Of a stretch of DNA of 42,373 bases, positions 17,069 through 41,475 are shown one piece after another. The stretch lies in NCBI GenBank assembly GCA_050331235.1, contig JBHJHA010000068.1, positions 1 through 42,373 on the forward strand. The letters are read 5' to 3'. A model generated the notes under the pieces. The model worked only from the letters and a program-made list of their open reading frames with translations. It was not told the DNA's origin and made no database searches. Each line of letters starts with the position of its first letter. Within the stretch, counting starts at the first letter, position 1. Source of the stretch: Leptolyngbyaceae cyanobacterium. Its GTDB lineage: Bacteria; Cyanobacteriota; Cyanobacteriia; Phormidesmidales; Phormidesmidaceae. Made by a program: the position numbers and the translations under genes.

Positions 17069-19128
17069 ATGCCCAACCGTCTTGCTAACGCTCAGAGCCT
17101 TTACTTGCGTAAGCATGCCCATAATCCGGTTGACTGGTGGCCGTGGTGTGAGGAAGCTCTAGAAACTGCGCTGCGCGAGCGTAAACCTATCTTTTTGTCC
17201 ATTGGCTACTCGAGCTGCCACTGGTGCACTGTGATGGAAGGGGAGGCGTTTTCGGATACAGCGATCGCTAATTATCTCAATGCCCATTTTCTCCCTATTA
17301 AAGTTGACCTCGTGAAGGACGCCCTGACATCGACAGTTTGTACATGCAGGCGCTGCAGATGATGGTAGGACAGGGGGGCTGGCCGCTGAACATATTTTTT
17401 CCCCTGACGATTTAGTACCGTTCTACGGGGGCACCTACTTTCCAATCGAGGCCCAATATGGCCGTCCAGGATTTCTGCAAGTCTTACAGGCGTTGCGGCA
17501 ATATTTTGAAACGGACACCGAGAAAGTCAGCGCCGTGAAGGCAGAAATTCTCAGTAATTTGCAAAAGTCTGCCAAACTGCCAGCCGGGGGAGACCTGAGT
17601 CAAGATGTTTTAGAGCGGGGCTATGGTCTCTGCGCCCAGGTGTTAGCGCCCAGGACAACAGCAATCGGTTTCCGATGATTCCCCATGCCTTAGTGGCACT
17701 GTGAGGGGGTAAGTTCCACATTGTGGGAGAAACTCAACCGGGCAGCCTGGCAGTATGCAAACAACGGGGCCTCGATCTGACTTTGGGAGGGATTTTTGAT
17801 CATGTGGCCGGCGGGTTTTATCGCTACACCGTAGACTCGACTTGGACGGTCCGCACTTCGAAAAGATGCTGTATGACAATGGCCAGATCATGGAGTATCT
17901 GGCAGAACTCTGGAGTCTCGGCGTCCAAGAGCCGGCCATCAAGCGGGCGATCGCCTTGACCAAGGGGTGGCGACAGCGGGAAATGACGGCCCCGGCTGGC
18001 TACTTTTATGCCGCTCAGGATGCTGACAGCTTTTCGTCCTCCCAGCATATCGAACCGGAGGAAGGGGCCTTCTATATCTGGTCCCATGGGGAACTCCAAA
18101 GCCTCCTGTCTGAAGACGCGCTGGGCAGCTTAGCGGCAGCCTTCACGGTTTCAGTGGTCAGAAATTTTGACGGGCATAATGTTTTGCAGCGTCGCTACCC
18201 CGGACCGCTCGGTGAGTCTAGTGAACAGGCATTGGCGACTCTATTTGAGGCCCGTTATGGCAAACCAGCAGCAGCGCTGACTACATTTCCCGCCGCGGAA
18301 GATAACCAAGCCGCCAAAATGGTGCCTTGGCCTGGGCGGATTCCAGCTGTGACCGATACGAAGATGATTGTCGCCTGAAACAGCTTGATGATTTCTGGTT
18401 TGGCTCGAGTAGCGGCAGTCTTTGGCGATCGCGAAGCCTACGAGATTGCCACCCAAGCAATGGCTTATATTCTAAAAAATCAGTGGGTCCAGGAGCGGCT
18501 CCATCGGTTAAATTATGCCGGTCAGCCCTCTGTATTGGCTTAGTCAGAGGACTATGCCCTGTTGGTCAAAGCCCTGCTGGATCGGCATCAGGCCAAATGG
18601 CAGTGGCCCGACCAGAAAAATGATCATGACTGGCTGCCCGCTGCGATCGCAGTCCAGGCTGAGTTTGACTAGTGGCTCTGGAGCGGTGAACTGGGAGGGT
18701 ACTACAACGCCGCCTCAGATGCCAGCGACCAACTCCTTGTGCGGGAGCGCACCTACCAAGACAGTGCGGTCCCAGCGGCCAATGGCATTGCGATCGCCAA
18801 TCTGGTCAAACTAGCACTCCTGACGACTGACCTCACCTATCTCGATAAAGCGGAAGCCAGCCTTCAGGCCTTTGGCACGGTGATGGCTCAGATTCCCCGA
18901 GCGTGTCCTTTATTGCTCACAGCACTCGATTGGTTTCGCCATGCTACCCTCGTCAGGCTACCGCCCGACAAAATCGCCAGCTTCCTGACCCAATACACCC
19001 CTATAGCCCTCTTTTAAGCCGACCACGACCTACCGACTGAGGCCATGGGTTTGGTGTGTGAGGGTCTCTTTTGCGAAGCCCCAGCAACGGACTGGGCCAT
19101 GTTGCGATCGCAATTAGAAACCAGTTAG
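17069..19128 (+). pseudogene. Thioredoxin-domain/(alpha/alpha)6 YyaL/SSP411 (DUF255) family pseudogene
   Basis: Family motifs ([86 protein letters not shown]) are spread across frames. About 4 frameshifts (near 17309, 17397, 17660, 17850) and in-frame stops at 17702, 18376, 18541, 18670 and 19015. Confidence 0.92.
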
Positions 19129-19209
19129 CAACGACTAAGCTAGGTAAGCTTGCCCTTGTGACGATATCTTGGAAGTGGAGGACAGAAATAACCCGGTTAT
19201 TGTTTGCCC

Positions 19210-30824: not shown

Positions 30825-32066
30825 TTAGTAGGGAACTTGGTTCAAGAAATTTCCCGGGGGGCTATATTGACACACCAAATACCGGCCCGACTGCGATTCC
30901 GGAAAATTGGGAAAGAGTAGGCTGCCATTGCCTCCACGCAATGTGCCCGTCGCAAACCCGCAGCCGACTTCCGTTGTGTCACGCCAGACGATTTGGGTGT
31001 AGTGACCAATCACCCCCGTCGCTTGACTTCGAGCTTCGGCAAACGGGATACCCGGAATGTAGTTGTTGTTTTTTTCTCTGGCCCAGCGATCCACCATGAC
31101 CGCCAGCGGCGACGTATCGCCAATGTCGACGGCCAAATTCTCCCCGGTATTGGTCAATCGAGTCGCTCCTGCCTCACTGTGCTCAAACACCAGACCATTG
31201 GCCCAAGTTTGGGCACTAGTCGCCAACTGGGTCGACCAGGTTAAGGGGGCGACGCCAACCTCAGCGCGATATCGATTGTGGGCCTCCAACAGGGCCACGA
31301 CTTCCACTTGGCTCAAGGTACTGGTGGCCTCGGGCAGTGAGGCCTGGGCAGTGGGGGTGGAGGGCTCTTCAGGAGTTTCTGGTGGGCGCGTCGCACTGGT
31401 GCCAGCGGGCAAGTCTCCCGCGGCAAACTCACCACAATAGGCGGTGCGGGCCATCACCGCAGCGGTGTAACCCCGGGTAGCCCCCGTACTCGGCTGGAAG
31501 GCTTGACCAGCCTCATTGACTGGGCGAGCAATGCCACCACAAAGGCTAGCCATATAGCGAATCGAGTCCGCCGCCCAGTGCCCAGAAATATCCGAAAAGT
31601 TGAACGTTGGAGTGCCGACGTCAGCGCCCCCAAACAGCTGGCGGGTCATCGCCATGAGCTCGGCGCGAGTCACCGTTGCCGTCGGATCAAACAGCCCATT
31701 GCCCCGGCCAGCAATGATGTCAAAGTCTGCCAGATAAGCAATCTGCGACTCACTCCAGCGGCCAGCGGGCACATCTCTGAAACAGCTTTTGAGGTTGCCG
31801 TTTTCGGCATCGGTATACCCTAAGAAAGTCGCAATGATGGCGGCCGCTTGCTCGCGGGTCAGGGTGCTATTCGGGCGAAAGGTGCCATCGCCCGGACCGG
31901 CAATTAACCCCAAGTCGGCAGCCAATTCAATTTCCTCAGCGTAGACATGGTTGGACGTATCGGAAAAGGTCAGGTTCTGGGTCTGGGCATCAGCAAGAGA
32001 AAAGGCCCCCCAGACAGTACTCAGGGTGGCTGTCCCCACCAACCCAGCAATCACTTGTTTGAACAT
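30825..32066 (-). CDS. Secreted SLH-domain + CAP (SCP/PR-1) domain protein
   Basis: Signal peptide from ATG 32066. Three SLH repeats. CAP motifs LEAHNRYRAEVG, GENLA, GHYTQIVW, VGCG, LVCQYSPPGN. Confidence 0.88.
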   Translation of the reverse strand: MFKQVIAGLVGTATLSTVWGAFSLADAQTQNLTFSDTSNHVYAEEIELAADLGLIAGPGDGTFRPNSTLTREQAAAIIATFLGYTDAENGNLKSCFRDVPAGRWSESQIAYLADFDIIAGRGNGLFDPTATVTRAELMAMTRQLFGGADVGTPTFNFSDISGHWAADSIRYMASLCGGIARPVNEAGQAFQPSTGATRGYTAAVMARTAYCGEFAAGDLPAGTSATRPPETPEEPSTPTAQASLPEATSTLSQVEVVALLEAHNRYRAEVGVAPLTWSTQLATSAQTWANGLVFEHSEAGATRLTNTGENLAVDIGDTSPLAVMVDRWAREKNNNYIPGIPFAEARSQATGVIGHYTQIVWRDTTEVGCGFATGTLRGGNGSLLFPNFPESQSGRYLVCQYSPPGNFLNQVPY

Positions 32067-32262
32067 GTTAGGCCGTTTCAAAAGGGGCAGTTCCACACCA
32101 ACAACATCGCAAAATGCCCGCGTCATAAGCATTATCGACCGGCTCGTCACCGGCTCGTCAACCCGGCGACTGCTAAATCGGGGCAATTGGTCAATCCAGT
32201 CCCTATTTAGCAGTCTGATTTCTTAGAATAATAGACGCCCTAACCGACAGGATGTTTCTACT

Positions 32263-33732
32263 GTGACAGCGACCCTTAGCGCGCGTGTTGATTTGGCTGA
32301 TCTGATGAGGGCGGCGATCGCGACCTTCGATGTACCGGCCGACTGGGTCGGCATGCGGGCCACTCGTGAAGCGAGTGTCTATCGCTCGCAGCGGGATGGC
32401 AAGCCCGAATGCAATCAGCGATCGCTCCAGCAGGGCGTCATGGTTGAGGTGTTGGTTGACGGCCAAATGGGCTACGCCGCGACCAACCAACTGACCATTG
32501 ACGCCCTCCGGCAAGCAGCGCTCCAGGCCTATCAGCAAGCCCAAGCAGCGGTCCCCTGGCAGATTTATGCCTTTCCATCAGCGATCCGCCCCCAAGTCAT
32601 GGGGGTCTACCGTTCTACAGTTGAGAAGCCCCTCAAAACCCTGTCCGCCCAGCAAGCCCATGCGCTCCTCGCCCAGATCTGTCATACGTTAAAAGTCTCT
32701 GACAAAATCGTGCAGGCGAGCGCGGCGATTACGGCGAAAGAAGTCGACACCTGGCTGGTCAGCAGTTCCGGTACGGATGTCCATCAGCAGTTTTCCTTAT
32801 TTACTCCGACGTTTGGCGCCACCGCCCAAGACGGGGCGATCGTCCAGATGCGCAGTAATAACGGTCGCGGCCACAGCTACCAAGCCGGCTGGGAATTTTT
32901 TGACCTGGGCGACGCGCTGTGGGAGTCGGTGGCGCGCATCGGCGAGCAGGCAGTGGAGTTGTTGACGGCACCCCAATGTCCTGACATGACGACGACGCTG
33001 GTCTTAGCCCCAGACCAGATGATGCTACAGATCCACGAGAGTATTGGTCATCCCCTCGAACTTGATCGGATTTTGGGCGATGAGCGCAACTATGCCGGCG
33101 GTAGCTTTGTGAAACCGGCGGACTTTGGGCAATTACAGTACGGCTCTGAGCTGTTGAACGTCACGTTTGATCCGACGGTCGACCAGGAGTTTGCCAGCTA
33201 CGCGTTTGATGATACGGGGGCAGTGGCCGAGCGGCAGCATCTCATTCGCCATGGCATCTTGCAGCGGGGACTCGGCAGCCATGAAAGCCAAAACCGGTTA
33301 GGGGTGCCAGGGGTCGCCTGCGCCCGAGCCACGAGTTGGGATCGGCCACCCATCGATCGCATGGCCAATATCAATGTGGAGCCGGGCGATCGCTCGCTGG
33401 CTCAGATCATCGGCTCCATCGAAGACGGCATTTATATGGAAGCCAATCGCTCTTGGTCCATTGATGATCAGCGCTACAAGTTTCAGTTTGGGTGCGAATA
33501 TGCCCAGCGCATCCGCGATGGGAAACTGGCCGAAACCGTTCGCAATCCCAACTACCGGGCCACGACCCCACAGTTTTGGGGCAGTTTGTCTCAGGTGGGC
33601 GATCGCAGTACCTGGCAAATGTTTGGCACTCCCTTTTGCGGCAAAGGTGAGCCCAACCAAATTATTCGGGTTGGCCATGGAGCCCCGGTCTGTGCCTTTG
33701 AGCAAATCGAAGTCTTCGGCGGAGTCGGCTAA
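32263..33732 (+). CDS. tldD: TldD-type metalloprotease subunit (TldD/PmbA family)
   Basis: IHESIGHPLE (HExxxH), FDDTG, PPIDRMAN, FQFG, CGKGEPNQ. Confidence 0.88.
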   Translation: MTATLSARVDLADLMRAAIATFDVPADWVGMRATREASVYRSQRDGKPECNQRSLQQGVMVEVLVDGQMGYAATNQLTIDALRQAALQAYQQAQAAVPWQIYAFPSAIRPQVMGVYRSTVEKPLKTLSAQQAHALLAQICHTLKVSDKIVQASAAITAKEVDTWLVSSSGTDVHQQFSLFTPTFGATAQDGAIVQMRSNNGRGHSYQAGWEFFDLGDALWESVARIGEQAVELLTAPQCPDMTTTLVLAPDQMMLQIHESIGHPLELDRILGDERNYAGGSFVKPADFGQLQYGSELLNVTFDPTVDQEFASYAFDDTGAVAERQHLIRHGILQRGLGSHESQNRLGVPGVACARATSWDRPPIDRMANINVEPGDRSLAQIIGSIEDGIYMEANRSWSIDDQRYKFQFGCEYAQRIRDGKLAETVRNPNYRATTPQFWGSLSQVGDRSTWQMFGTPFCGKGEPNQIIRVGHGAPVCAFEQIEVFGGVG

Positions 33733-35063
33733 TGCACCAGTGGGAAACAACATTTAACCAATTGATTGATGCGCTACTGCCCCAGCTCCAGCCGGAGGAA
33801 GCGGTTAGAGTCAGCCTCATTGCGGAAGCCAGCCAATTCACTCGATTCAATCGGGCGCAAATCCGTCAGACCGGCAGCATTGCAAAAGGCACCCTCTCGA
33901 TTACGTTAATTGCCCTGGAGTGTTCGGCCACTGAGTCAGTCACCTTTACAGGCGATAAATCAGTCGACTGGCCACTGTTGTGGGCAGCCATATCAACGCT
34001 CCGGGAGGAACTAGCTGGGTTGCCGGCGGATCCCTATCTGATCCGGCCAGAAGGCACGGCCCAGAGCCGCGAGGTCTATGGCGGAGAACTGTTGCCCATC
34101 ACCGCAATCGCTCCGACCTTATTGCCAGCCATGGCCGGGCTAGATGCGGTGGGTCTGTATGCCGGCGGACGCTCCGTACGGGCCTATGCCGATTCGGCGG
34201 GGCAGCGCCACTGGTTTGAGACCGAGACCTTTACACTTGACTACTCTCTGTTTACGCCATCGGGGCAAGCGGTCAAAGGCATTTATGCTGGCAGGGATTG
34301 GGATATGGCAGCCTACACAGCGCAATTGGTCGCGTCTAAATCCCTTTTGGAACGGATGGCTCAGCCTCCCAAACAGTTAGCCCGGGGGCAATACCGCACC
34401 TACTTTGCACCGGCAGCCGTTGCAGACTTAGTCGGGATGCTGTCTTGGGGCGGGATTGGAGAAGCCGCGATTCGGCGGGGGGGGAGTGCGCTGGCAGCCT
34501 TGCAACGAGGTGAGCAAGCCCTCTCGGAGCAGCTCTCCCTAGCAGAAGACTTTTCCCAGGGGCAGGTGCCCCGATTTAATCAGTTCGGGGAGTTGGCGCC
34601 CACGACACTGCCGCTGATCGAGGCTGGGCAGTTGGTCAATACCTTAGTCAGTGCGCGGACGGCCAAGGAATACGGGATGGCCTCAACCTATGCCGAGGGG
34701 GGAGAGTATCTGCGATCGCCTGTCCTTGGCCCCGGCACCCTAGCTGAAGCGGACATTCTCACCGCTTTGGATACTGGCCTCTACGTGTCTAACCTGCACT
34801 ATCTCAACTGGAGCGATCGCCCCCAGGGGCGCATTACCGGCATGACCCGCTACGCCTGCTTTTGGGTCGAGCAGGGTCAGCTTATTGCCCCCATTGAAAA
34901 CCTACGGTTTGACGAAAGCCTTTACAACTTTTGGGGCAAGAATCTAGTGGCTTTCACTCAGGCTCCTCAGTTGATCCCAGAGGTCGGCAGTTACGACTAT
35001 CGCGACATTGGGGGGACTACGGTTCCTGGCATGTTGGTCGATAAGTTTGCCTATACATTGTGA
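33732..35063 (+). CDS. TldE/PmbA-type non-catalytic partner subunit
   Basis: Overlaps the tldD stop (TAATG). TRFN, LHYLN, TGMTRYACFWVEQG, PIENLRFDES. No HExxH. Confidence 0.85.
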   Translation: MHQWETTFNQLIDALLPQLQPEEAVRVSLIAEASQFTRFNRAQIRQTGSIAKGTLSITLIALECSATESVTFTGDKSVDWPLLWAAISTLREELAGLPADPYLIRPEGTAQSREVYGGELLPITAIAPTLLPAMAGLDAVGLYAGGRSVRAYADSAGQRHWFETETFTLDYSLFTPSGQAVKGIYAGRDWDMAAYTAQLVASKSLLERMAQPPKQLARGQYRTYFAPAAVADLVGMLSWGGIGEAAIRRGGSALAALQRGEQALSEQLSLAEDFSQGQVPRFNQFGELAPTTLPLIEAGQLVNTLVSARTAKEYGMASTYAEGGEYLRSPVLGPGTLAEADILTALDTGLYVSNLHYLNWSDRPQGRITGMTRYACFWVEQGQLIAPIENLRFDESLYNFWGKNLVAFTQAPQLIPEVGSYDYRDIGGTTVPGMLVDKFAYTL

Positions 35064-35193
35064 CGTTAGCTCGATCAGCGGAGCATGCCTGCTGCCAGGC
35101 ATGATTTTTCCAGCAAGGCTAAACTCACCGAATCATCCGCTCAAGGCAAAAGATCACCGCAGCGGGGTCAGAGATCGCAGTCTCAATGAATTC

Positions 35194-35245
35194 TTAAACC
35201 AAGTTTTATTGAAAAATTAACCTTCCTACGGTCTTTCCTTAAAGG
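35194..35245 (+). promoter_or_regulatory. Pho box (SphR/PhoB binding) upstream of the phn operon
   Basis: TTAAACCA (35194), TTTATTGA (35205), ATTAACCT (35216) and CTTAAAGG (35238) sit on an 11-bp register and resemble the cyanobacterial YTTAAYYW repeat. Confidence 0.7.
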
Positions 35246-35275: not shown

Positions 35276-35297
35276 ATGTCTATTTAGGTATAGACGT
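35276..35297. promoter_or_regulatory. Candidate GntR/HutC-family (PhnF-type) operator
   Basis: ATGTCTATTTAGGTATAGACGT contains a GTCTAT-N6-ATAGAC inverted repeat and a GT-N-TA-N-AC core (GTATAGAC, 35288-35295). Confidence 0.55.
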
Positions 35298-35377
35298 TTG
35301 TCACATCCTGAGTGTGTTCTCCGACAGAGTCAGGGATGACATGATAAGAGGCGATATTCAGCCATCTTGGAAGCACT

Positions 35378-36205
35378 ATGCGACCAGTCAATCAACGCCT
35401 TGACGAAATGTCCTCACGGCAGCCAGCGGTTTTTGTTGACCATTTGTCGAAATCTTTTAAGGGGCAATATGCCCTGAGAGAGGTGACCTTTGAAGTGGCA
35501 GCCGGCGAGCGCATTGCCCTAGTAGGGGCATCGGGATCGGGTAAATCAACACTGCTGCGCAATGTCAATGGTCTCCACATTGGCGACAAAGGCGTTGTGG
35601 AAATCTTTGGTAGCCCGCTGCAGGCTGATGGCGCGCTGCACTCAAAAGCCCGTCAACTCCGTAGCCGCATCGGCTTTATTTTCCAGCAGTTTAACTTGGT
35701 CAATCGGCTTTCGGTCATTGAAAACGTGATGGTTGGCAGTCTCTCCAAAGTTTCCTTAGGACGATCGCTCTGTCAGTATTTTTCCAAGACAGAAAAGCTG
35801 CAAGCGCTCGCGGCGCTAGAGCGCGTGGGCATTTTGGAGCAGGCCTACAAGCGGGCTTCATCCCTATCGGGGGGACAGCAGCAGCGGGTGGCGATCGCCC
35901 GCTGCTTAATGCAGGGTGCCCAGATCATCTTGGCAGATGAGCCGATTGCCTCCCTGGATCCCGAGTCGGCCCGCAAGGTCATGGAATTGCTGACCCACCT
36001 CAACGAAGATGAGAGCATTACCGTCATCACGTCTCTGCATCAAGTGCAAATGGTGCATCGATATTTTGACCGGGTCGTGGCTTTGAGAGATGGCACAGTC
36101 CGCTTTGATGGTCTGACCAAAGACCTCAACGACGACCAGCTCAATAATATCTACGGTTCTGCGTCCGAAGAGCTGGTCTTTAGAGGGCATGCTGAGGTGT
36201 TTTAA
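35378..36205 (+). CDS. phnC: Phosphonate ABC transporter ATP-binding protein
   Basis: GASGSGKSTLLR, IFQQFNLVNRLSVIENV, LSGGQQQRVAIAR, ILADEPIASLDPESA, SLHQV. Confidence 0.95.
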   Translation: MRPVNQRLDEMSSRQPAVFVDHLSKSFKGQYALREVTFEVAAGERIALVGASGSGKSTLLRNVNGLHIGDKGVVEIFGSPLQADGALHSKARQLRSRIGFIFQQFNLVNRLSVIENVMVGSLSKVSLGRSLCQYFSKTEKLQALAALERVGILEQAYKRASSLSGGQQQRVAIARCLMQGAQIILADEPIASLDPESARKVMELLTHLNEDESITVITSLHQVQMVHRYFDRVVALRDGTVRFDGLTKDLNDDQLNNIYGSASEELVFRGHAEVF

Positions 36206-36320
36206 TTCCCACCTTTAGCCACCCCAACTGCGAGTTTGCTCCTTACACACCTGCAATGCTGAAACTGGTTTCAGCTGTTTGTTTGCTCGACATATTTTGA
36301 TGTTTAGTTTGGAAACTGCC

Positions 36321-37394
36321 ATGAAATTCTCTTTACTCAACAACTGGTCAGCTCGACTGGCGTTTGCCCTCGCCAGCACGGCTCTGATTGCTAGCTGCAG
36401 CAGCTCTTCGACCCCGGAGGCCTCTGACGCTGAGACCTCTGAGGACACGGCTGAAGAAACCGCCTCGGCGGAAGGCGAAGCCTGCGCCCCTGAGATCGCT
36501 GAAATCGACTTTGGCATCATCTCAACCGAGTCACAAACCAACCTGCAAGAAATCTGGGAGCCGTTCCTCGAAACGATGGCAGAAGAGATGGGTCGCCCCG
36601 TCAATGGTTTTTATGCCACTGACTACGCTGGCGTCATCGAAGCGATGGGAGCCGGTAAGATTCAAATTGCTTGGTATGGCGGTAAGTCTTACATCGAAGC
36701 GGCGAAGCGATCAGGGGCTGAGGCCTTTGCTCAAACCGTTGCAAGTGACGGTTCTAAAGGCTACTACGCACACCTAATTACGAATAAAGAAAACCCCATC
36801 GTCGGTGAAATCGATGTTGAAGCGGGTAACGGTGACCAGTACGTGATTGATAACGCTGGCAACCTGACCTTTGCTTTCAACGACCCCAACTCTACCTCTG
36901 GCTTTTTGGTGCCGAGCTACTACGTGTTTGCACAAAACGGCGTTAATCCTGAAGAGTCCTTTAGTGAGCTAATTTTTGCCGGTAGCCACGAGGCAACGGC
37001 TCAAGCTGTAGCGAATAATCAAGTCGACGTCGCAACCAATAACAGCGAGTCCATGTCTCGCCTTCAAGAAACCGATGCAGAAGCCTTTGAGCAAGTCCAA
37101 ATCATCTGGACTTCGCCCTTGATTCCCAGTGACCCGATTGCCTATAAGGACGATATTCCCGAGTGTCTGAAAGCGGAACTCAAAGACTTCTTTTACAACA
37201 TTGAGGATGAGTCTGTATTGGGCCCCCTCGACTGGCAAGGCTTTGACGAAGCGGGCGATACCGATTGGAATACTATCCGTGAACTCGATGTCGCTAAGCG
37301 TATGGAGGAAGTCAAGAATGACGATGCGTTGAGTGAGTCTGATAAAGAAGCTCAGCTAGAAGAACTCAATAAAGAGTTGGAAGCATTAAAGTAG
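36321..37394 (+). CDS. phnD: Phosphonate ABC transporter substrate-binding lipoprotein
   Basis: Lipobox IASC. FGIISTES, ATDYAGVIEAM, DPNSTSGFLVP, GSHEA, DVATNNSE, WTSPLIPSDP. Confidence 0.95.
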   Translation: MKFSLLNNWSARLAFALASTALIASCSSSSTPEASDAETSEDTAEETASAEGEACAPEIAEIDFGIISTESQTNLQEIWEPFLETMAEEMGRPVNGFYATDYAGVIEAMGAGKIQIAWYGGKSYIEAAKRSGAEAFAQTVASDGSKGYYAHLITNKENPIVGEIDVEAGNGDQYVIDNAGNLTFAFNDPNSTSGFLVPSYYVFAQNGVNPEESFSELIFAGSHEATAQAVANNQVDVATNNSESMSRLQETDAEAFEQVQIIWTSPLIPSDPIAYKDDIPECLKAELKDFFYNIEDESVLGPLDWQGFDEAGDTDWNTIRELDVAKRMEEVKNDDALSESDKEAQLEELNKELEALK

Positions 37395-37405
37395 GCTACC
37401 TCTGA

Positions 37406-37507
37406 CCGACGTTGGGCATTCAGTCTATGAAACTTGCTCAGTGCCCAGCGTCGGCTAACGCCCTCTTTACAAGCAGTCAGGGAATGCGCTGAGCGTTCCT
37501 GGCTGCT
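37406..37507 (+). promoter_or_regulatory. Two tandem stem-loops between phnD and phnE (mRNA stabiliser or partial terminator)
   Basis: CCGACGTTGGGCATT/AGTGCCCAGCGTCGG (37406-37454) and AGCAGTCAGGGA/TCCTGGCTGCT (37472-37507). Confidence 0.65.
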
Positions 37508-37541
37508 AAGTGCTGTTTTGTCCTTAGCTGCTTAATTCACC

Positions 37542-38375
37542 ATGGCCAATAACTCGTCATTCAACACCACTGAAATGCATTACTCCCCCGCTGTGCGCGA
37601 GGTCCTGGCAAAGGAAAAGCCATTTTGGACAGTCTGGAGTATTGGAGGGCTATTACTTGCCATCGCGGTGTTAATCTACGCTGGCATATTAAGCGACTTG
37701 AGCTTTGTCGAGCTGATCGAAGGCATTGGTGCAATGGCAAACCTGGTGGGTAAGTTTTTCCCTCCCGACTTTACGCGCTGGGCCAGCTACTTCAGCGCGA
37801 CCATTGAGACGATCGCGATGGGCATCTGGGGAACTTTGTTGGCGGTGGTTGTGGCCATTCCGTTATCGATTCTCGCGGCAGAAAATGTGTGTCCCCCTTG
37901 GGTCGTGTTTCCCACTAGGCGTTTGCTCGATGCCATGCGCGCCATCAATGAGCTAGTGTTTGCCCTCATTTTCATTGTGGCGGTCGGCCTAGGTCCCTTT
38001 GCTGGCGTATTGGCCCTGTTTGTCCATACTGCTGGCACATTAGGCAAACTGTTTTCCGAGGCAATTGAGGCGATCGAGCCCGGTCCCGTGGAAGGTATTC
38101 GGGCGACCGGGGCCAGCAAACTACAGGAAGTGATTTTTGGGGTGATTCCCCAGGTGATTCCCCTGTGGACGTCGTTTACGCTTTACCGGTTTGAGTCCAA
38201 CGTGCGATCGGCTTCAGTCTTGGGCATCGTGGGCGCGGGCGGTATCGGTGTTGCACTGTACCAAAACTTCCGCGCCTTCAACTATCAAAACGTTTGTGCT
38301 GTACTCATTATCCTGGTAGTCACAGTCGGTGTAATTGACACCATTTCGGCACGCATTCGTAACCGTCTTGTCTAA
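37542..38375 (+). CDS. phnE: Phosphonate ABC transporter permease
   Basis: FFPPDF, ETIAMGIWGT, RAINELVFALIF, GKLFSEAIEAIEPGPVEGIRATGA, YRFESNVRSASVLGIVGAGGIG. Confidence 0.95.
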   Translation: MANNSSFNTTEMHYSPAVREVLAKEKPFWTVWSIGGLLLAIAVLIYAGILSDLSFVELIEGIGAMANLVGKFFPPDFTRWASYFSATIETIAMGIWGTLLAVVVAIPLSILAAENVCPPWVVFPTRRLLDAMRAINELVFALIFIVAVGLGPFAGVLALFVHTAGTLGKLFSEAIEAIEPGPVEGIRATGASKLQEVIFGVIPQVIPLWTSFTLYRFESNVRSASVLGIVGAGGIGVALYQNFRAFNYQNVCAVLIILVVTVGVIDTISARIRNRLV

Positions 38376-38399
38376 TGCAAATTGGAGAGTCAAGCACTT

Positions 38400-38765
38400 A
38401 TGGGATTTGAATGGATGCTCTATCTCCTACTGGGCTTAGGGGTTGGCACCCTCAGCGGTCTGATCGGCATTGGCGGCGGCGTACTAATCACACCCGCTCT
38501 AATTTATTTTTTTGGCTTTTCCCAACACTATGCCCAAGGGACGACCTTAGCGCTGCTAGTCCCCCCCATCGGGTTACTAGGCGCTTGGACCTATTTTCAA
38601 CAGGGCTATGTCGATGTGCGGGCCGCCGGGCTTATTTGTTTGGGTTTTGTGTTTGGGGGCTTGATTGGTGCCAAATTCGCGGTCGATTTGCCCGAGCAGT
38701 TTTTGCGGCAGGCGTTTGGGGTTGCGATGATTCTGCTGGGCGTCAGGATGGTAACGTCTTCTTGA
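38400..38765 (+). CDS. Half-size TauE/SafE (TSUP) family membrane protein
   Basis: GTLSGLIGIGGGVLITPAL, AQGTTLA, GGLIGAKFA. About 4 TM helices, i.e. a single TSUP repeat. Confidence 0.85.
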   Translation: MGFEWMLYLLLGLGVGTLSGLIGIGGGVLITPALIYFFGFSQHYAQGTTLALLVPPIGLLGAWTYFQQGYVDVRAAGLICLGFVFGGLIGAKFAVDLPEQFLRQAFGVAMILLGVRMVTSS

Positions 38766-39030
38766 GCTTGAGCCCACAATAGAACGATCGCTGCGGGTGT
38801 AAGTCATCCTCTGCATGGTAAGGGTTGACTGCATTTCGCATCGATATCCAAAGTTGGATAGGCGTCGGGTAACGCCGCTAAGCAGCAGATCTGTACGGGC
38901 TTGTCCGACCGCGCCGCCCCATTGAAGCCAGTGGACTGTTAGCCTGCCACCGGCCAGTGACTCGCAAGAGACAGATAACAGGCTCAAAGGTTTTACATCA
39001 TTGCCGACAACATTTGACATGGGAGGGGTT

Positions 39031-40167
39031 ATGGCAGAGCAGGTCTACACCAACTACTGTTTGCAGTTACCGGATCAAGAGGTCTTGGGGACGCTGGTCG
39101 TACGCGATGGCCGGATTGCGGAGGTGCAGCCGGGTACCGCAACTGCGGGGGAAGATGGCAAAGGCCAGTATCTCTTACCGGGTTTGGTTGAGCTACACAC
39201 CGATAATTTTGAGCAACGGTTATCCCCTCGCCCTAAGGTGCGATGGCCGATTGAGATGGCGGTTTTGCACCACGATCGCGATCTGGCGGCGGCAGGTATT
39301 ACCACAGTGTGCGATGCGATCGCCGTTGGCGACATTACCCCTACCTCGATGCGGATGACCCAATTTGACCCGATGATTCAAGCCATTCACCAGGGGCAAG
39401 AAGCGGGACGCTTGGCCGTTGATCATTACTTACACCTGCGTTGCGAATTGGGCTACGACAAGGTGCACGAGGTGACAGCGACCTACGCCGGACATCCCCT
39501 GCTGCGGCTGATATCGTTGATGGACCATACGCCGGGGCAGCGTCAATTTGCTCAGGTGGATAAGTACAAAGAATATTATCAGGGCAAGCACGGTGTCACC
39601 GATGCGGAGATGGAAGATTTTATCCGCGATCGCATTACAGCTCAACAGCAACATGCAGAACTCAATCGGCGTCAGCTCGTAGCATTGGCCGGCGATCACC
39701 AAGTCTGCTTGGCCAGCCACGATGACGCCACCTCAGAACATGTACAAATGGCCGCCGCTGAAGGAGCCCATATTTCGGAGTTTCCCACCACCTTATCTGC
39801 CGCCAAAGAAGCTCATCAGCACGGACTACAAGTGTTGATGGGAGCGCCAAACCTGATTTTGGGTGGTTCCCACTCAGGTAATGTCTCAGCCATGACGCTG
39901 ATTGAACATGACCTGGTCAATATCATTTCCTCTGACTATGTGCCACAGAGTTTGCTGCAGGCGATGTTTTTCATTGCTGAGCAACAGGCCCGGCCGCTCC
40001 ACCAAGTGATGCGCCTGTTCACCAGCAATCCAGCTCAGGCGGTGGGGTTGGCGGGCGATCGCGGCAGTTTAGAAGTCGGCAAACGGGCAGATTTTATCAC
40101 CGTGCGGCATGACGGCACCCTGCCGCGGCTGACCGCCGTATTTAGCCAGGGCCAACGGATCACCTAA
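39031..40167 (+). CDS. phnM: Alpha-D-ribose 1-methylphosphonate 5-triphosphate diphosphatase
   Basis: LLPGLVELHTDN, PRPKVRW, HLRCE, SLMDHTPGQRQF, LASHDD, SEFPTT, MGAPN..GGSHSGNVSA, SSDYVP. GGAGGGG SD before ATG 39031. Confidence 0.95.
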   Translation: MAEQVYTNYCLQLPDQEVLGTLVVRDGRIAEVQPGTATAGEDGKGQYLLPGLVELHTDNFEQRLSPRPKVRWPIEMAVLHHDRDLAAAGITTVCDAIAVGDITPTSMRMTQFDPMIQAIHQGQEAGRLAVDHYLHLRCELGYDKVHEVTATYAGHPLLRLISLMDHTPGQRQFAQVDKYKEYYQGKHGVTDAEMEDFIRDRITAQQQHAELNRRQLVALAGDHQVCLASHDDATSEHVQMAAAEGAHISEFPTTLSAAKEAHQHGLQVLMGAPNLILGGSHSGNVSAMTLIEHDLVNIISSDYVPQSLLQAMFFIAEQQARPLHQVMRLFTSNPAQAVGLAGDRGSLEVGKRADFITVRHDGTLPRLTAVFSQGQRIT

Positions 40168-40237
40168 GGGCGGTCAAACTTGGCCAGTGTGATCGGTATG
40201 GATGGGGTGTAGTTGTCAGCAGTGTTTAAGGGGCTTT

Positions 40238-40783
40238 ATGGCGTCTCAGTTACAGGATTTATTTCAGCTCTATCGAGATCGCGGCCAAGCTCAGTATGGC
40301 GGCGAGGCGGTAAGCCAGCTTGAGCATGCACTCCAATGCGCGGCTTTAGCAGAGCAGGCTGATAGCCCACCAGAACTGATTGTGGCGTCGCTGTTTCATG
40401 ACTTGGGACATTTGGTCCACGACTTGGGAGAGGGCGCAGCTCAGCGGGGTATTGACGATCGCCACGAATATCGAGCATTACCCCGGCTCAAAAGGTTGTT
40501 TAGTTTAGCGGTAACGGTTCCCATACAGCTTCATGTGGCGGCCAAACGGTATTTATGTGCCGTTGATCAGGGCTATTGGCAAACCCTCTCTCCAGCTTCT
40601 CAGCGGAGCTTGGCACTGCAAGGGGGAATTTTTTCGGCGGCTGAGGCTGCAGCATTCATTCAGCAACCCCATGCCCCCGCAGCGGTCAAACTGCGCCGGT
40701 GGGATGACCTCGCCAAGGTCAAACAGCAGCCAACACCAACGCTAGAGCACTTTGAGGCGATCGCAAACGGCATCACTCAGTAG
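40238..40783 (+). CDS. phnZ: Phosphonate-degradation HD-domain di-iron oxygenase (PhnZ-like)
   Basis: YGGEAVSQLEHALQ, LFHDLGH, DDRHE, HVAAKRYL, LSPASQRSLALQGG, LRRWDDLAK. Confidence 0.85.
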   Translation: MASQLQDLFQLYRDRGQAQYGGEAVSQLEHALQCAALAEQADSPPELIVASLFHDLGHLVHDLGEGAAQRGIDDRHEYRALPRLKRLFSLAVTVPIQLHVAAKRYLCAVDQGYWQTLSPASQRSLALQGGIFSAAEAAAFIQQPHAPAAVKLRRWDDLAKVKQQPTPTLEHFEAIANGITQ

Positions 40784-40833: not shown

Positions 40834-41475
40834 TTAAGTGAACGGCGATTTCAGAAAGATGGCGCGATACACGGGCAAATCCTTACCTAGCGTCAGAATT
40901 TCGCGATCAGTTTGCGCCGGAAACGGACTCTCTTTGAGCCAAGCTGCCTCACTGCGACGAAACATGGCATTTTCGCTGAAGCGATCGCACATTTCCTGGG
41001 CAACCGCTTCGACGTCCGATTGCAACACCACACGGCCGCCCACTGGTAGGGTCTTCGCTAGCGCCTGTACCAGCTCTGGCTGCACAACGCGACGCTTTTG
41101 ATGGCGTTTCTTAAACCACGGATCCGGAAATTGGATACTGACCTGTTGCAGCGTATTGGCAGGCAGCGTCTCCAATAGCTCTGCCAGGGAAGCATTGGCA
41201 TTACAAAACAGGAAATGTAAATTCTTGAGGCTTTGGCGATCGCGCTGCTGGAGGGCATAGTCCACCAGCGGCGCTCGAATCTCTAGCCCTAGGAAATTCC
41301 ACTCAGGGGTAAGCTCGGCCATCTGACTAATGAAGTAGCCCTTAGCACAGCCGATATCGATATGCAGCGGCTGTGAGGGCATCTGATAAATCGTGGACCA
41401 GTCAAGCTCGCCGATCTGGGTTTGATACTTGTGACTGAGCGGATTTACATGTTGTCGAACTCTAACAGCCGCCAC
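40834..41475 (-). CDS. trmB: tRNA (guanine-N7)-methyltransferase
   Basis: VRVRQHVNPL, HIDIGCAKG, FLGLEIR, NLHFLFCNAN, QFPDPWFKKRHQKRR, LQSDV, TDRE. Confidence 0.95.
   Translation of the reverse strand: MAAVRVRQHVNPLSHKYQTQIGELDWSTIYQMPSQPLHIDIGCAKGYFISQMAELTPEWNFLGLEIRAPLVDYALQQRDRQSLKNLHFLFCNANASLAELLETLPANTLQQVSIQFPDPWFKKRHQKRRVVQPELVQALAKTLPVGGRVVLQSDVEAVAQEMCDRFSENAMFRRSEAAWLKESPFPAQTDREILTLGKDLPVYRAIFLKSPFT

Follow-up and report, generated by a model that had tools for sequence, protein, structure and literature searches.

The stretch of DNA analysed here, called the window below (42,373 nucleotides; contig JBHJHA010000068.1 of assembly GCA_050331235.1, from a Leptolyngbyaceae cyanobacterium), carries a phosphonate locus of six genes on the forward strand (35378-40783): phnC, phnD, phnE, a half-size tauE, phnM and a phnZ-family gene. 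Neither phnF to phnL nor phnY is found within the locus, as the initial annotation had correctly stated when it described PhnM and PhnZ as two orphan enzymes. In E. coli, PhnM trims the ribose-phosphonate triphosphate made by PhnGHIL, and PhnJ performs the cleavage together with PhnK and PhnL (accessible part of PMC10574752). Which pathway, then, do the two enzymes serve? Three options had been offered: a split carbon-phosphorus (C-P) lyase regulon, a route that imports already hydroxylated phosphonates for PhnZ, and an undescribed pathway in which PhnM and PhnZ are coupled.

Our analysis supports the split regulon. With a probability of about 0.85, the locus supplies the uptake and tail genes of a canonical C-P lyase system that is split over up to four loci, its phnF-GH-GNAT-IJ piece being present in the organism and unassembled. 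A new pathway is likely not involved. Judged from gene order, phnM-phnZ is the tail of the contiguous operon found elsewhere in the family. The chemistry is known; the novelty lies in the layout.

Other C-P lyase genes in the genome

The genome under study (G000; 4.80 Mb, 118 contigs, 95.5% complete) was compared with the genomes of its relatives (G001 etc.). Gene identities are based on the curated NCBIfam cut-offs for the phn genes and on a Pfam model for TauE. The initial annotation had held that a complete set of core genes elsewhere in the genome would reduce the locus to a split canonical pathway. The genome-wide search did find phnK and phnL, but phnF, phnG, phnH, phnI and phnJ were not found in the assembly. 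For phnF, the best match is another GntR gene, below the cut-off. Both phnK (contig C58, 61526-62284; 372 bits, cut-off 303) and phnL (contig C65, 34994-35647; 330 bits, cut-off 256) are full length, devoid of stops and stand alone, phnK behind the gene for HetZ-related protein 2 and phnL between btpA and gyrA. The C-P lyase features present in the assembly are thus the PhnCDE importer, PhnK, PhnL and PhnM, at three loci.

The relative G011 has four. In this two-contig assembly, tldD-tldE-phnCDE-tauE-phnM-phnZ is at 4.59 Mb of one contig, which also carries phnF-GH-GNAT-IJ (2.68 Mb), phnK (3.42 Mb) and phnL (3.63 Mb), these three pieces being 1-2 Mb away from the phnCDE-tauE-phnM-phnZ locus. 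The synteny comparison that had been proposed thereby yields the same locus plus every core gene elsewhere. Because phnK and phnL are intact on other contigs of G000 and G011 has the full set, phnM and phnZ are not orphans.

When compared to the C-P lyase systems of E. coli (phnC-P) and to the clusters of Trichodesmium and Nodularia spumigena, PhnC, PhnD, PhnE, PhnM, PhnK and PhnL of the genome pass the equivalog cut-offs. The congeners supply PhnG, PhnH, PhnI, PhnJ and PhnF, together with a GNAT acetyltransferase that is PhnO-like by position only. PhnN was not found in G000, where the sole match is a guanylate kinase; its absence is also reported for Trichodesmium (PMC10574752, in the part accessible to us). 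In contrast to the C-P lyase operon, the genes are spread in the genus over as many as four loci, and phnK and phnL are each surrounded by unrelated genes. Teikari et al. report cyanobacterial phn clusters of 8-21 kb that are variable and have no clear synteny; dispersal is not described in the available part of that paper (PMC5955973).

Assembly gap or gene loss

In G007, G008 and G011, the genes around the core are ordered DUF192, DUF4335, DUF3038, phnF, (phnG-J) and an unnamed gene. DUF4335 is present in 13 of 13 congeners and was not found in G000. The phnF-linked DUF3038 paralog, present in all 12 congeners searched, is absent from G000, which has only the other paralog, and the DUF192 gene of the block was not found in G000 either. 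Only the last 53 codons of the unnamed gene that follows phnJ remain, and these occupy positions 1-159 of contig C62. In G005, phnJ is followed by the unnamed gene and a 2-oxoglutarate-Fe(II) (2OG-Fe(II)) gene, and the same 2OG-Fe(II) gene comes next on C62. Among 50 protein clusters common to the congener loci, 19 lack a close match in G000: 11 are in the block, two resemble shadow frames and six are scattered.

Real losses look different. G007 has kept all flanks, around a frameshifted phnF, the GNAT gene and a fragment of phnI; its phnK is decayed, and it has no phnL, phnM or phnZ. Its decaying C-P lyase genes are found at L125:4382-11603 (phnG, phnH and phnJ gone) and L118:2749-3178 (broken phnK behind the HetZ-related gene). 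G010 has kept phnF-DUF3038-DUF4335, and phnJ, phnK, phnL and phnZ are missing. In these genomes, DUF3038 and DUF4335 are retained and neither phnK nor phnL survives intact, while G000 shows the reverse, which argues for a gap over a loss.

Additional evidence comes from sequencing runs. In run X1, the first 8 kb of C62 are found on a single contig (depth 11.9, 10 differences). Nine of these 10 differences fall within L062:1-254, at the start of C62, as expected for a low-quality contig end. The same run has a 6575-nt contig of depth 10.8, pieces of which align in order to DUF3038-phnF-phnG-phnI of G011; it was aligned to this relative at about 79% identity, and its tie to G000 consists of depth and gene order only. 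The joints shared with this contig have a depth of 3.5 in run X2 and 2.9 in run X3, where pieces of G000 have 2.3-4.2. A second phnF-G-GNAT contig, of depth 19.4, occurs in run X1. Depth values do not translate into proportions of cells, and all four runs belong to one study, X1 possibly being the source of G000 itself.

Some attempts did not help. Bridging the gap with X1 failed, as its contig extends only 791 nt beyond the start of C62 and ends still within the neighbouring gene. An exact 40-nt query from the start of C62 had no matches among metagenome contigs, a search that may exclude the records of G000 itself and is hence uninformative. A shared glycosyltransferase gene was discarded as a depth gauge for G000, being only 70% identical to G011, with loose ends that are not those of G000.

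Because flanking genes that all congeners tested have kept are missing too, one of them truncated by the end of a contig, and X1 has a matching contig of similar depth, phnF to phnJ are most likely present in the organism and missing from the assembly.

Dispersal in the genus and in the family

The HetZ-related gene precedes phnK in all seven dispersed loci read. In five of six cases, phnL has gyrA as a neighbour at a distance of no more than about 3 kb. In G003, G004, G005 and G012, phnCDE-tauE-phnM adjoins phnF-J, with phnK at another site. The operon of G001 is contiguous, with tauE after phnE. Our family survey covered 123 genomes that are at least 90% complete. All 57 genomes with phnJ also have phnK. 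The two genes are within about 3 kb of each other in 49 of the 50 phnJ genomes outside the genus (the 50th being cut by contig ends) and are far apart in six of seven inside it. Only two of the 59 phnK genomes lack phnJ, namely G000 and G114, and phnK of G114 is on a 2017-nt contig. A phnK with the same neighbour also occurs in records labelled Halomicronema sp., Leptolyngbyaceae and unclassified cyanobacteria (the closest named ones). The four-way split of C-P lyase is a genus-wide trait that is unseen in the other genera of the family, which is a modest novelty. No description of a dispersed phnK/phnL layout was found in the open literature, although supplements and subscription papers may list such genomes.

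The contiguous phnEDC-F / GH(GNAT)IJKLM(M2)Z operon of the family (G001, G015, G024, G030 and others) has the same genes, including the phnZ tail after phnM. As in the locus of G000, tauE follows phnE in G001; PhnF-type sites are located 5' of phnC and phnG in the contiguous operon. In the initial annotation, tauE and about 265 bp were thought to sit where phnF-L normally lie. The spacer is indeed 265 nt long, but tauE is not a substitute for phnF-L, because the contiguous G001 operon already has phnE-tauE, with phnF-L on the other side of phnC.

In a single-gene PNPase tree, G005, which is already split, is at the base of the genus, and the G001 copy clusters with other genera in a PhnM tree (FastTree, single genes, subsets of 17 and 18 genomes; inner support is weak and there is no clade test). 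Dispersal is likely old according to these trees, and the G001 operon was likely re-acquired later, after loss. G001 (L051, L131) retains a second phnF at the usual site of the genus, beside the contiguous operon elsewhere.

PhnM and PhnZ

PhnM is 73-81% identical to five aligned relatives, three of which are from phnJ genomes, and its motif columns are undiverged; no close solved structure was found for it by sequence. Alignment of the PhnZ-family protein to the solved structures of PhnZ (E 4e-25) and TmpB (E 4e-30) matches the histidines and aspartates of the HD motif. Its residues H30, H54, D55, H76, H99 and D156 as well as Y20, K103 and R153 align to solved PhnZ; these are presumably metal and phosphonate ligands. 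It shares with the mixed-valent diiron HD oxygenases PhnZ, TmpB and GmPhnZ1 a score above the TIGR03276 cut-off and matches to structures 4MLM and 6NPA at the metal-binding motif positions. It differs from them in scoring below the subtype models (GmPhnZ1 158/300, TmpB 146/300) and in having no PhnY/TmpA partner nearby.

A phnZ above the cut-off was found in 23 of 61 genomes, in 13 of them within 3 kb of phnM. The 12 of these other than G000 all carry phnJ. In the contiguous operons of the family, phnZ is the gene directly after phnM. The two are apart in G002, G003 and G004, and G010 lost phnZ and kept phnM. In six further loci, phnZ stands alone or by a different phosphonate-like cluster, without phnM and with no PhnY recognizable in an inspection of the open reading frames by eye. 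Linkage of phnZ to other phosphonate clusters without PhnY* has already been reported (PMC8154272, accessible part), and a co-occurrence of 21% with C-P lyase is given in the part of PMC9381506 available to us. In two other cyanobacteria (L214:104-6306, L215:5806-11950), phnZ ends an ATP-binding cassette (ABC) transporter cluster with, by eye, a PhnX-like hydrolase and a flavin adenine dinucleotide (FAD) oxidase.

No linked PhyH-family PhnY* dioxygenase is found near phnM-phnZ in G000. The only PhyH match in the genome, rejected as a phnY candidate, is an unlinked fusion on contig C19 (L001:235-2196), a 653-residue protein that joins a PhyH dioxygenase domain to a kinase domain of the APH family. 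Three of five congeners searched have no PhnY/PhyH above the cut-off. The 2OG-Fe(II) gene on C62 (TIGR02466) was also rejected as PhnY: in G005 it is near phnJ, but behind an unrelated gene, and it is not in the phnZ loci read.

Because phnZ is separable from phnM and stands without recognizable PhnY in six loci, PhnZ likely provides a side branch that is independent of PhnY. Import of hydroxylated phosphonates for PhnZ, as proposed initially, thus likely stands as such a branch but does not explain why the locus as a whole exists.

Genera other than that of G000 code for a divergent second PhnM paralog (about 30% identical) between phnM and phnZ (L054:7270-8466, L055:7122-8288, L056:11860-13023, L059:6635-7870). 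In G015 and G032, a metallophosphoesterase gene follows phnZ, with a 51% homolog on contig C12 of G000; it perhaps replaces PhnP.

Regulation

Most relatives have a GntR-type palindrome 5' of phnC and of phnG. It is similar to the PhnF box of Agrobacterium, an inverted TGTCTAT (PMC11494704, accessible part). The tauE-phnM spacer has such a site in seven of eight congeners with that gene order (chance about 0.02 per region, for a loose pattern). Because of these sites, the spacer of the relatives likely serves as a promoter through which PhnF still controls the relocated phnM; in G000, the site is eroded. The erosion fits read-through from phnC and also recent loss of phnF.

With a matrix trained on the relatives, the operator 5' of phnC in G000 scores 14.2 and ranks 12th in the genome; the scores of the relatives are circular, because the matrix was trained on their own sites. 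The best-scoring matches of a genome-wide scan of G000 are located away from phn genes. The top palindrome (23.0; C36:66590-66605) is flanked by an unnamed hydrolase-like gene and by a gene for a small membrane protein. A promoter and terminator scan yielded counts (5 vs 4.3 and 10 vs 6.9) that are not above those in shuffled sequences. Repeats upstream of phnC are putative Pho-box-like elements. TTAA words are similarly placed in most of nine aligned congener promoters (by eye).

Alternative explanations

Several findings weigh against the split system with an unassembled core, including the limits of the run data given above. The absence of phnN is one of them, and the absence of phnF-J from an assembly that is 95.5% complete is another. 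The latter suits a recent true deletion of the core, in which phnM, phnK and phnL would be undecayed relics and PhnCDE and PhnZ would import and cleave ready-hydroxylated phosphonates. Such a deletion also agrees with the eroded PhnF-type sites of G000: at phnC, the tandem second half seen in relatives is eroded, leaving one good half, and the spacer site is missing (best score 3.1), as it is in core-less G010. True loss has occurred in at least two of 13 congeners (G007, G010). In the genomes of G010 and G026 (each 99% complete), phnM is intact and accompanied by phnCDE, whereas phnJ, phnK, phnL and phnZ are lacking. phnK and phnL of G000 look conserved relative to the congeners, but the ratio of nonsynonymous to synonymous differences (pN/pS), 0.10-0.17 for phnK (seven congener comparisons) and 0.20-0.27 for phnL (six), is blind to recent loss of selection because synonymous sites are saturated against all congeners. 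Also, no PhnF-type site was found 5' of phnK in 15 loci, and among 14 phnL loci a score of more than 10 is reached only in G005 (12.8) and G034 (10.5). With sites lacking at phnK and nearly all phnL loci, the operator scan gives no support to co-expression of phnK and phnL with the core. A deletion is nevertheless unlikely: G007 and G010 have kept DUF3038 and DUF4335 and have phnK and phnL gone or broken, opposite to G000, the missing block terminates at a contig edge, and run X1 contains a matching contig.

The loci of G010 (L052:8202-12686) and G026 (L053:9067-14603, where phnF and the GNAT gene are also retained, as is a PhnF-type site 5' of phnM) may be relics or may hint at a lyase-independent role of PhnM. 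They would be further cases if oxygen-sensitive PhnGHIJ were truly lost, with PhnM, PhnK, PhnL and PhnZ selected for a lyase-free, oxygen-using route, which we regard as very improbable. Direct coupling of PhnM and PhnZ in an undescribed lyase-free pathway, for example with PhnZ oxidizing a nucleotide-linked phosphonate that is trimmed by PhnM, is hardly credible. The joint move of phnM and phnZ at the operon split in six genomes (G000, G005, G009, G011, G012, G013) and the lack of a linked PhnY candidate would fit it. However, the presence of phnJ in all 12 other genomes with adjacent phnM-phnZ speaks against both this option and the notion of orphan enzymes, as do, for the coupling, the separation of the pair in G002, G003 and G004 and the retention of phnM without phnZ in G010. 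Furthermore, phnZ occurs without phnM and without visible phnY in six of six other loci read, PhnM shows no motif-column divergence from its relatives, and PhnZ retains the residues that match solved PhnZ.

Proposed function and implications

For the split C-P lyase system, the following scheme is proposed. Upon phosphate starvation, PhnCDE would import phosphonates, which PhnGHIL would join to the ribose of ATP. PhnM would strip pyrophosphate, and PhnJ, opened by PhnK/PhnL, would break the C-P bond, the proteins from dispersed loci assembling into a working lyase. Through copied operators, PhnF likely controls phnCDE together with phnG-J and, in the majority of congeners, with phnM; the expression of phnK and phnL is likely that of their host loci; Pho signals may also regulate the pathway genes. 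In parallel, PhnZ would likely use oxygen to cleave imported (R)-1-hydroxyalkylphosphonates, for example hydroxymethylphosphonate or (R)-1-hydroxy-2-aminoethylphosphonate (R-HAEP), with no need for PhnY.

In this genus, the subunits of a single complex have remained intact although their genes lie at as many as four distant loci and the divergence saturates synonymous sites. A PhnF-type site is placed 5' of the moved phnM, with none 5' of phnK or phnL. The layout is an experiment of nature on whether PhnK and PhnL have to be regulated together with the core. C-P lyase is usually counted as one cluster, and therefore cluster-based surveys would miss such mat cyanobacteria, which are possible methylphosphonate users and methane sources. 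Counts based on phnM would over-call genomes like G010 and G026.

Features of the locus and its surroundings

The features of the locus are listed in Table 1. The co-oriented run between tldDE and the convergent trmB is as originally described, with five phn genes above their family cut-offs. TauE is truly half-size, as its match starts at position 127 of a 237-position Pfam model. Copies 3' of phnE in G001, G011 and G012 are 89-91% identical to it, and the half-size tauE behind phnE is conserved in the genus.

Table 1. Features of the phnCDE-tauE-phnM-phnZ locus and its boundaries (positions in the window).
Feature	Position	Strand	Basis
tldD/tldE, left boundary	32263-35063	+	
Pho-box-like repeats 5' of phnC, putative	35193-35244	+	TAA-core words at 35193, 35216, 35238; spacing 23 and 22 nt
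PhnF-type operator 5' of phnC, putative	35277-35299	+	TGTCTAT, 6 nt, ATAGACG; pattern match
phnC, ABC ATPase	35378-36205	+	TIGR02315, 283 bits (cut-off 266)
phnD, phosphonate-binding lipoprotein	36321-37394	+	TIGR03431, 307 bits (cut-off 261); longest open reading frame from 36279
phnE, permease	37542-38375	+	TIGR01097, 312 bits (cut-off 217)
tauE, half-size TauE/SafE membrane protein	38400-38765	+	PF01925, 85 bits, model positions 127-237
tauE-phnM spacer	38766-39030	+	265 nt; likely former promoter of phnM, PhnF-type site eroded
phnM, ribose-phosphonate triphosphate diphosphatase	39031-40167	+	TIGR02318, 487 bits (cut-off 391)
phnZ-family HD-domain diiron oxygenase	40238-40783	+	TIGR03276 (Phn-HD), 233 bits (cut-off 215)
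trmB, right boundary, convergent	40834-41475	-	

HIP1 octamers are found at 35891 (phnC), 39316, 39626 and 40055 (phnM) and 40757 (phnZ). These five sites in 5406 nt (7.3 expected from the genome mean), together with a G+C content of 53.3% (genome 52.6%), give no sign of recent foreign origin, and the native origin assumed initially on account of HIP1 sites in these three genes holds.

A second phnCDE-like transporter of the genome (L066:5866-8970, contig C109) is 30-43% identical to the first and is below the PhnD cut-off. In the window, the gene that adjoins tldD (30825-32186, reverse strand) codes for a secreted protein that combines SLH domains with a CAP domain. The gene at 17069-19134 is a single 691-codon open reading frame in G011 and is represented here by fragmentary matches without a long open reading frame, possibly due to frameshifts or assembly errors.

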